From the NCBI RefSeq assembly GCF_988243305.1, contig NZ_OZ547136.1: 64,000 nucleotides of DNA; one strand, written 5' to 3'. This document shows positions 6,139 to 6,661 of the stretch, piece after piece (position 1 is the first letter of the stretch; each line of letters starts with the position of its first letter). Made by a program: the position numbers and the translations under genes. The notes under the pieces are model-generated. The model was not told the DNA's origin and searched no databases. It saw only the letters and a list, made by a program, of their open reading frames with translations.

Positions 6139-6320
6139 TCACTATTACCAAAGGGCGACTGCTGACAATCAAGCAGTGGCGCGAAACATACGGACCGGGT
6201 AGCAACGTTGTACTGCCAGCAGAAGAAGCGGAAGAACTGGCACGAATTGCACTGGTATCGCTGGAAGCAGAGCCGGTTGTGTTCTGGTTTGAAAAATATC
6301 AAGAAGGGGCTACGGCATGA
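6135..6320 (+). CDS. Hypothetical small protein (61 aa)
   Basis: ORF overlapping neighbours by 4 nt at both ends. Confidence 0.4.
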
Positions 6321-6661
6321 CGACTTTTACCAGAGAGCAGTTAATAGCTCACGCAGAGGAGACTATTGAAGCACAGAGACTGTGCATACCGGGTACAATC
6401 GACCATGACATCATCCGCACATATAAGATGGATATTGCTGTTCTGGAAATCGCACTGGTATCGCTGGCAGCAGAGCCAGCCGGTAAATTGCATGAATACA
6501 AACCAGTGGGATATCAGCGTCTGGTCGATGAGTTAACCATGCTGGTAAAGCAGTTAACCTGGCAACTGAGGAAAGCGAAGCCAGACTGCAAATTACCGGA
6601 TAAGGCGATGAGTTATCTGGAGCGGAACGGACTGATAAGCGTGGAGGATATTTTACGATGA
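6317..6661 (+). CDS. Hypothetical prophage protein (114 aa)
   Basis: ORF translationally coupled to upstream gene. Confidence 0.45.

Follow-up and report, generated by a model that had tools for sequence, protein, structure and literature searches.

A repeated domain-boundary motif in the exo-xis genes of a lambdoid prophage as a probable short homology patch for in-frame exchange

Two adjacent small genes of a lambdoid prophage share a 29-bp direct repeat. We consider it likely that the repeat is the DNA of a domain-boundary peptide acting as a short homology patch, at which gene parts are exchanged in frame and the DNA between tandem copies is deleted. The observations are an island of near-identity, its position at a domain boundary of the protein model, reassortment of the parts on either side, breakpoints that fall at the island, and two deletion derivatives with crossovers in the motif. 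This is a known route to phage mosaicism and not a new biological mechanism or element type.

The window is the whole stretch of DNA that was analysed (64,000 nucleotides). Copy 1 of the repeat, the 29-mer ATTGCACTGGTATCGCTGGAAGCAGAGCC, occupies 6246-6274 on the plus strand, exactly as given in the initial annotation, and encodes residues 38-47 of ORF1. Copy 2, ATCGCACTGGTATCGCTGGCAGCAGAGCC, occupies 6449-6477 on the plus strand and encodes residues 45-54 of ORF2. It had been placed at 6450-6478, one base too far (25 of 29 bases mismatch in that register), and the single mismatch reported becomes two in the correct register: T/C at repeat position 3, synonymous for Ile, and A/C at position 20, changing Glu to Ala. 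The direct repeat is real, and both copies are in frame in two neighbouring ORFs, as had been proposed.

The encoded peptide is IAL[V/A]SL[E/A]AEP. The longest identical tract between the window copies is 16 nt (GCACTGGTATCGCTGG), and adding a single base gives 28/30 matching positions (6245-6274 versus 6448-6477), for which the chance expectation on the same strand in 64 kb is approximately 7e-6. A third copy with six or fewer substitutions was found on neither strand of the window. On both sides of the repeat, identity at offset 203 is at the background (random) level. Of the nine codons that specify the same amino acid in the two copies, seven agree, where local codon usage predicts 2.85 (P = 0.005); the rare codons GTA and TCG are among those in common. 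In relatives the island around copy 1 reaches approximately 6234-6277 (ELAR, the motif and GGT).

The window matches Escherichia coli AR_0372 (NZ_CP027134.1) at 100%. ORF1 and ORF2 belong to a lambdoid prophage that has yecE/yecN beside its insertion site, and lie in its early-left exo-xis (‘ea’) region. Gene order begins with a CI-like repressor (780-1475), followed by a CII-like regulator and several unknowns; then come two Ead/Ea22-like genes (Pfam Ead_Ea22; 4513-5139 and 5136-5621) and, directly before ORF1, a gene matching phrog_9263 (5590-6138). Beyond ORF2 lie a DUF4222 gene (6746-6988), a 48-aa ORF, the excisionase (7147-7383) and the integrase (7439-8752). The repeat is approximately 1 kb from xis/int and not at an att end. 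Two further features of this stretch concern gene calling. The 5590-6138 gene is termed ‘frameshifted’ by PGAP (L171, 8624-8802), yet forms one intact 171-182-aa ORF in the window; the region is likewise an intact ORF in phage Lyz12581Vzw, and is two genes (58 and 95 aa) in phage YYZ-2008. At 6658-6741 a 27-codon ORF, apparently a single hydrophobic helix, overlaps the ORF2 stop by ATGA; it is unannotated in AR_0372 and is fused in frame to an ORF2-type protein in P0011 and P0029.

ORF1 (6135-6320, plus strand) encodes 61 aa: a type L0 N-terminal hairpin, the motif and a 14-aa tail. ORF2 (6317-6661, plus strand), which ORF1 overlaps by ATGA, encodes 114 aa. A type L2 hairpin makes up residues 1-51 and the motif residues 45-54; a linker then leads to a helical module at the C-terminus (ELTMLVKQL...ISVEDILR). 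The PHROG matches of ORF1 are phrog_60, 3323 and 660. Because ORF1 and the N-terminal half of ORF2 match the same regions of PHROG profiles 60, 3323, 660 and 5117, the two carry paralogous N-terminal modules, with 27-33% amino-acid identity between the hairpins. No Pfam or NCBIfam family was found for either ORF at E <= 0.01, Ead_Ea22 (PF13935) and DUF551 (PF04448) included. A third, diverged member of the hairpin family lies at 4153-4467 on the plus strand (MTITKQRVEKII...EEVYDLAVLALNLSN...), with a weak phrog_3323 match over residues 9-55; its motif is degenerate and has no DNA-level copy of the repeat.

An AlphaFold2 model of ORF2 (33-sequence alignment, mean pLDDT 78.7) has helices at residues 6-26 and 30-51, forming a hairpin with pLDDT above 90, and at 64-87 and 95-103; residues 52-63 are a low-confidence linker following the motif. 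The motif makes up the last two turns of helix 2 (30-51) and a helix-breaking Glu-Pro. Since the motif ends helix 2 and the linker follows, it marks a structural domain boundary in the model, predicted to be that of an N-terminal helical hairpin of approximately 45-55 aa. A Foldseek search of the model against the PDB returned generic helical hairpins only and nothing significant (best E 0.59).

A profile search with the hairpin recovered at least 2,189 representatives at 50% identity; nearly all of the best 150 of these 2,189, which are proteins of 66-423 aa, start with the hairpin at residue 1. There is no Pfam or NCBIfam model for it, and searching the literature for the peptide string brought up no relevant paper mentioning the motif. 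The module occurs by tblastn in Stx phages, in Salmonella, Shigella and Klebsiella phages and in P1/P7-like elements; this search of phages with the N-module aligned residues 1-26 only and so serves for host and phage range alone, the gap over the remainder, motif included, being taken to be BLAST low-complexity masking. Among 5,426 complete E. coli genomes, 2,007 contain part of an 801-bp region around the repeat. Proteins of 61, 118, 252 and 317 aa in relatives include the ORF1-type hairpin and motif, and 80 IMG/VR loci collected with codon-degenerate peptide patterns have more than 20 unrelated continuations after the same head. Tandem arrays of two or three motif genes occur, and many family members end in DUF551. 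The proteins are built as ‘beads on a string’: other linker motifs recur in them (PLYTAPPxPVVP, WNACRAAMLQ and SPVTPDGWISCSERMP) and may be additional in-frame joints.

Reassortment was evaluated in a sample of 200 motif instances, drawn from 160 IMG/VR loci (two sets of 80) together with phage and E. coli loci. These instances, each of them in frame on the gene strand, comprise 14 left (hairpin) DNA types and 33 unrelated right types in 56 combinations. The left-type pairs 0/1, 0/3, 0/6, 1/6 and 3/6 each have at least two right types in common, a four-gamete violation. One N-module type is joined to 21 C-parts; conversely, the C-part of ORF2 stands behind at least seven hairpin types, and the ORF2 hairpin precedes other C-parts, DUF551-ending ones included.

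Breakpoints fall on or beside the motif. In pairs with the same left type and different right types, the point where DNA identity is lost lies at motif positions 23-47, mostly at 26-32, and in pairs with the same right and different left types identity begins at -25 to +11; the pairs are not independent events, and the cluster definitions restrict where a break can be called. Across the 1,230 pairs that differ in type on both sides, the 30-nt motif has an identity of 0.81-0.89 and the flanks have one of 0.25-0.32; shoulders of the island lie at -12 to -1 and +30 to +35. Pairs with unrelated flanks share 5.5 codons family-wide, against 2.8 expected. Most of the alignment ends in 40 E. coli records, sampled with a spread, fall at window positions 6234-6283, where BLAST ends in phage records accumulate as well. 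Matches to Stx phages stop at 6277-6279, and homology of locus L088 to the window resumes exactly at 6449.

Direct evidence comes from a natural pair of recombinants. A Logan assembly contig (L085) carries the same prophage in the same yecE/yecN site, with 99.9% identity to the window over 4500-6274 and 99.2% over 6448-9500; relative to the window it lacks precisely 203 bp, from one reported copy to the other. Its single hybrid motif has the T of copy 1 at position 3 and the C of copy 2 at position 20, which places the crossover within the 16-nt identical core; it encodes the predicted product, an in-frame 107-aa chimera, P0042. Within the prophage L085 differs from the window by approximately two SNPs, so the event is recent. 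An inter-lineage crossover was considered for L085 on account of a raw contrast in differences to the left and right of the junction (1/1775 versus 24/3053, P = 2e-4). Omitting the bacterial flank removes the contrast (equal lengths then have 1 versus 3 differences, P = 0.62) and with it the evidence for such a crossover, so that a simple deletion of recent date is the better reading. The L085-type deletion is rare, its junction being found on two assembled contigs only: the exact junction occurs in none of the 5,426 complete E. coli genomes, among which nine have the undeleted two-copy arrangement and one has a related single-copy chimera at 90% identity.

The other member of the pair concerns the window itself. 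Locus L011 has three motif-bearing genes, namely gene A (135 aa), gene B (55 aa) and ORF2, and the window equals L011 minus the 665 bp between motifs A and B. ORF1 is gene A of L011 up to the motif and gene B from the motif on. We infer from this correspondence that a 665-bp deletion gave rise to ORF1. The crossover intervals of the two events differ, spanning positions 3-20 for L085 and position 6 to +32 for the step from L011 to the window. Both steps are read here as deletions; insertion by unequal crossover would be the reverse direction.

ORF1 is a pseudogene according to PGAP (‘missing C-terminus’) and probably is a recombination remnant lacking a C-terminal domain. In other prophages its 14-codon tail forms the 3′ end of a gene for a 121-aa HNH endonuclease, and the C-terminus of the HNH protein, LVRMGLVEMKSDP, is a diverged version of the motif. 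One such endonuclease, at L089 1186-1551 (NZ_CP045827.1), ends in the diverged motif and the ORF1 tail; by NCBIfam it is weakly similar to HNH regions in IscB and in retron-associated HNH proteins. The position of a nuclease gene right at the recombination joint may or may not be coincidence. In 24 distinct contexts upstream of ORF2 we found a type-L3 hairpin with the tail (12), the HNH gene with the tail (6), ORF1 (2) or no such gene (2).

The starts of the two genes resemble each other as well. An island at 6118-6156 (plus strand) covers the ribosome-binding site, the ATG and M-I/T-T-I-T-K of ORF1, and homology to PhiR49_2 starts at 6134; its partner at 6300-6338 (plus strand) covers the start of ORF2, with 40/71 identity at offset 182. 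In locus L090, which has no ORF1, the two alignments to the window overlap exactly on this gene-start island. The island (ribosome-binding site and MTTxTKE) is a second, weaker mosaic joint.

The mechanism that we propose is as follows. The hairpin module heads a hyper-mosaic and very large family of accessory proteins in lambdoid (and P1-like) prophages, and its motif peptide would be under purifying selection exactly at the structural domain boundary. This constraint on the peptide would keep 30-44 bp of coding DNA nearly identical between genes that are otherwise unrelated, as an island at which homology-dependent exchange could join any hairpin in frame to any downstream part. The same exchange between tandem copies would remove the intervening DNA. 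Each exchange would copy the island too, which is why the copies would have synonymous codons in common. The joint would then be a by-product of protein-level conservation and not a selected device.

The exchange could come from RecA, from annealing of the phage Rad52 type or, where direct repeats lie close together, from replication slippage. Deletion between short, close direct repeats can proceed independently of RecA, by replication slippage or single-strand annealing. RecA-dependent exchange has a minimal homology of approximately 23-27 bp. From such established knowledge, the 16 nt of perfect identity available for the 203-bp deletion is short for RecA and would favour slippage or annealing, which we rate no less likely than RecA in this case. 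Like the 203-bp and 665-bp events, slippage-type deletion is precise, occurs between direct repeats and leaves one hybrid repeat; it covers such intramolecular deletions but not the inter-genome reassortment of 14 left with 33 right types. Rad52-like phage recombinases recombine short, diverged homologies efficiently (PMC3945230). In window positions 1-4500, the window's portion of the prophage, no Red, RecT or Erf gene was recognisable, so that a phage-encoded enzyme is putative for this prophage.

A different origin of the same junctions could be illegitimate joining followed by selection, such that surviving junctions concentrate at the domain boundary. Random illegitimate joins would not, however, yield hybrid motifs free of indels, as the recombinants have.

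A second alternative grants exchange at the motif and gives it a purpose. In a selected cassette or adaptor system, hairpin and motif would be a dedicated ‘handle’ for polymorphic C-terminal effectors, DNA identity at the joint would be kept by selection for evolvability, and truncated or tandem copies like ORF1 would be stored cassettes, in the way of orphan CdiA-CT modules behind the VENN motif. Such a system would account for the 21 C-parts on one N-module type, the head common to 2,189 clusters, the tandem arrays of two or three motif genes and codon sharing above expectation, the rare Ser codon TCG included; there is also a formal parallel with the VENN motif and orphan recombination (PMC6336857). 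Yet third-codon positions vary freely, as expected in the absence of DNA-level selection, and the codon sharing is accounted for by the exchanges themselves. The genes have neither a secretion or delivery domain nor an immunity-like partner, truncations of the ORF1 type are rare (2/24 distinct contexts upstream of ORF2), and ORF1 is a pseudogene in the PGAP annotation. We regard a selected system as unlikely. The same low probability is given to its most specific form, in which the IALxSLEAEP hairpin would be a phage adaptor docking many C-terminal effectors on one partner, with the identity of the joint and its tandem or truncated copies (ORF1 among them) kept because they permit rapid, in-frame effector switching of the Red type; if true, this would be a phage counterpart of VENN/orphan-cassette switching in CDI systems.

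The initial annotation had offered two readings of its own, a local duplication or a binding or processing site. Duplication holds in the sense of remote paralogy, as the common PHROG regions and the 27-33% identity of the hairpins indicate. It fails as recent tandem duplication: with flanks at random-level DNA identity, the 30-bp island is not the residue of such an event. A recent duplication, with the 30 bp as the slowest-diverging piece, would suit the arrangement of the genes (adjacent, co-oriented and overlapping), their matches to the same profile regions, and the alignment of their N-termini (MxTxT..L) and motifs. Uniform decay would nevertheless not give random flanks together with shared synonymous codons. 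Moreover, the halves of ORF1 exist separately elsewhere (genes A and B of L011; the HNH tail in L089), the two hairpins are of different types, each widespread elsewhere, and the series from L011 through the window to L085 contradicts it. We consider recent duplication very improbable.

The binding or processing site found no support. Conservation of the repeat in related prophages, which had been put forward as a check, was found, and its independence of the coding frame was not. Searched at the DNA level without regard to frame, 474 kb of related loci gave 94/94 copies on the coding strand in the same frame, with no out-of-frame, opposite-strand or intergenic copy in those loci, and a translation-level search of a larger sample gave 201/201 copies on the plus strand. 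The 36 distinct 30-mers differ from one another mainly at third codon positions. An Rfam scan of window 5000-7600 gave no match at E <= 1. Predicted RNA folding of both copies on both strands was like that of shuffled sequences (z of -0.12, -0.14, +1.25 and -0.88), the two copies fold differently, and a promoter scan found none at either copy. A weak terminator-like hairpin pattern at 6260-6277 overlaps copy 1 and is absent from copy 2; with four such patterns in the region against 1.4 expected, we judged it to be chance. Codon sharing above expectation, third-position variation and confinement to one strand and frame together fit purifying selection on the peptide and repeated copying of the island by exchanges; they do not fit a site at DNA or RNA level.

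A DNA- or RNA-level site within the coding sequence, whether for protein binding, processing, regulation or a site-specific recombinase, is hardly credible: the 30-nt identity above the requirement of the peptide and the weak terminator-like pattern speak for it, against which stand the confinement to one strand and frame in the related loci, the codon-position-3 variation, the negative Rfam and folding results and, for site-specific recombination (att or shufflon sfx-type), breakpoints scattered over approximately 25 nt around the motif with no fixed crossover position, the approximately 1 kb to xis/int and the occurrence of the motif also in the nin region and in P1-like elements.

A homology patch at a domain boundary has precedents. 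Clark et al. in 2001 reportedly described short conserved boundary sequences in phage mosaics with HK620. The boundary or linker sequences of lambdoid phages (the modular theory of Susskind and Botstein) are, as here, conserved patches of tens of bp between unrelated segments at a module border, with mosaic breakpoints on the patch and general, homology-dependent exchange. Short conserved flanking sequences are an accepted route of exchange leading to lambdoid mosaicism (PMC2327257, citing Clark et al. 2001; PMC3029335). Compared with such boundary sequences, the present joint is intragenic and in frame and gives chimeric proteins instead of re-sorting whole genes. An island, coinciding breakpoints, reassortment and recombinants without indels were found at the repeat, which would make it a boundary sequence by the usual marks.

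In the T-even phages, recombination between conserved ‘His-box’ motifs is said to swap segments of the tail-fibre adhesin genes (Tetart et al. 1998); this too is an intragenic, in-frame crossover motif, differing from ours in protein family, function (host-range adhesins) and motif.

Closer by location are the exo-xis genes such as ea22, which are mosaic, DUF551 being described as a portable domain (PMC10834534). Mosaic ea22 has, like the present genes, an exo-xis position, a common N-terminal segment and interchangeable C-terminal domains (PMC10834534, PMC7093339). The hairpin of ORF1 and ORF2 is different and un-modelled, and the ea22 papers give mosaic blocks but no specific joint sequence.

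The VENN peptide of CdiA is a short sequence that, as here, splits a constant N-part from variable C-parts (PMC6336857), and orphan cdiA-CT/cdiI modules fuse in frame downstream via homology of the motif DNA, likewise as here (PMC6336857). Unlike the CdiA/Rhs toxins, the present proteins are of 55-431 aa and cytoplasmic-looking, with no Pfam match but DUF551; they have no delivery domain and no toxin-immunity pair, and downstream lie DUF4222, xis and int. The resemblance to polymorphic toxins is mechanistic only and not one of membership.

The exchange joint that we favour is an unusually clean example of homology-guided mosaicism inside genes. Near-identical prophages form a natural series of three, two and one motif-bearing genes, with crossovers resolved to a few bases, and at least for the hairpin family the series supports the route through short conserved boundary sequences over purely illegitimate recombination. 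It also defines a widespread, un-modelled N-terminal module of enterobacterial prophages, Stx phages and P1-like elements and accounts for recurrent ‘partial’ and ‘frameshifted’ gene calls in the exo-xis region. Orthology in the exo-xis and nin regions is best assigned per module, not per gene.

Members of the same gene family also sit in the nin region, where the replication genes lie on one side and Q on the other and hok, rusA and DUF968 are neighbours (L086 and L087, approximately 3001-3306), and in P1/P7-like phage-plasmids (Upf89.5, ‘EaA’). With members in these places, the joint connects accessory regions across genome compartments and phage types.

Another direct repeat lies nearby. 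A 65-nt sequence at 4438-4502 recurs with 83% identity at 5120-5184, in each case spanning the ribosome-binding site, the GTG start and the first approximately 16 codons (MSKIDYQALREAAEQA / MSEINYQALREVAERA) of one of the two adjacent Ead/Ea22-like genes, the first of which is marked frameshifted by PGAP. It appears to be the same sort of conserved-end island as the repeat reported here.
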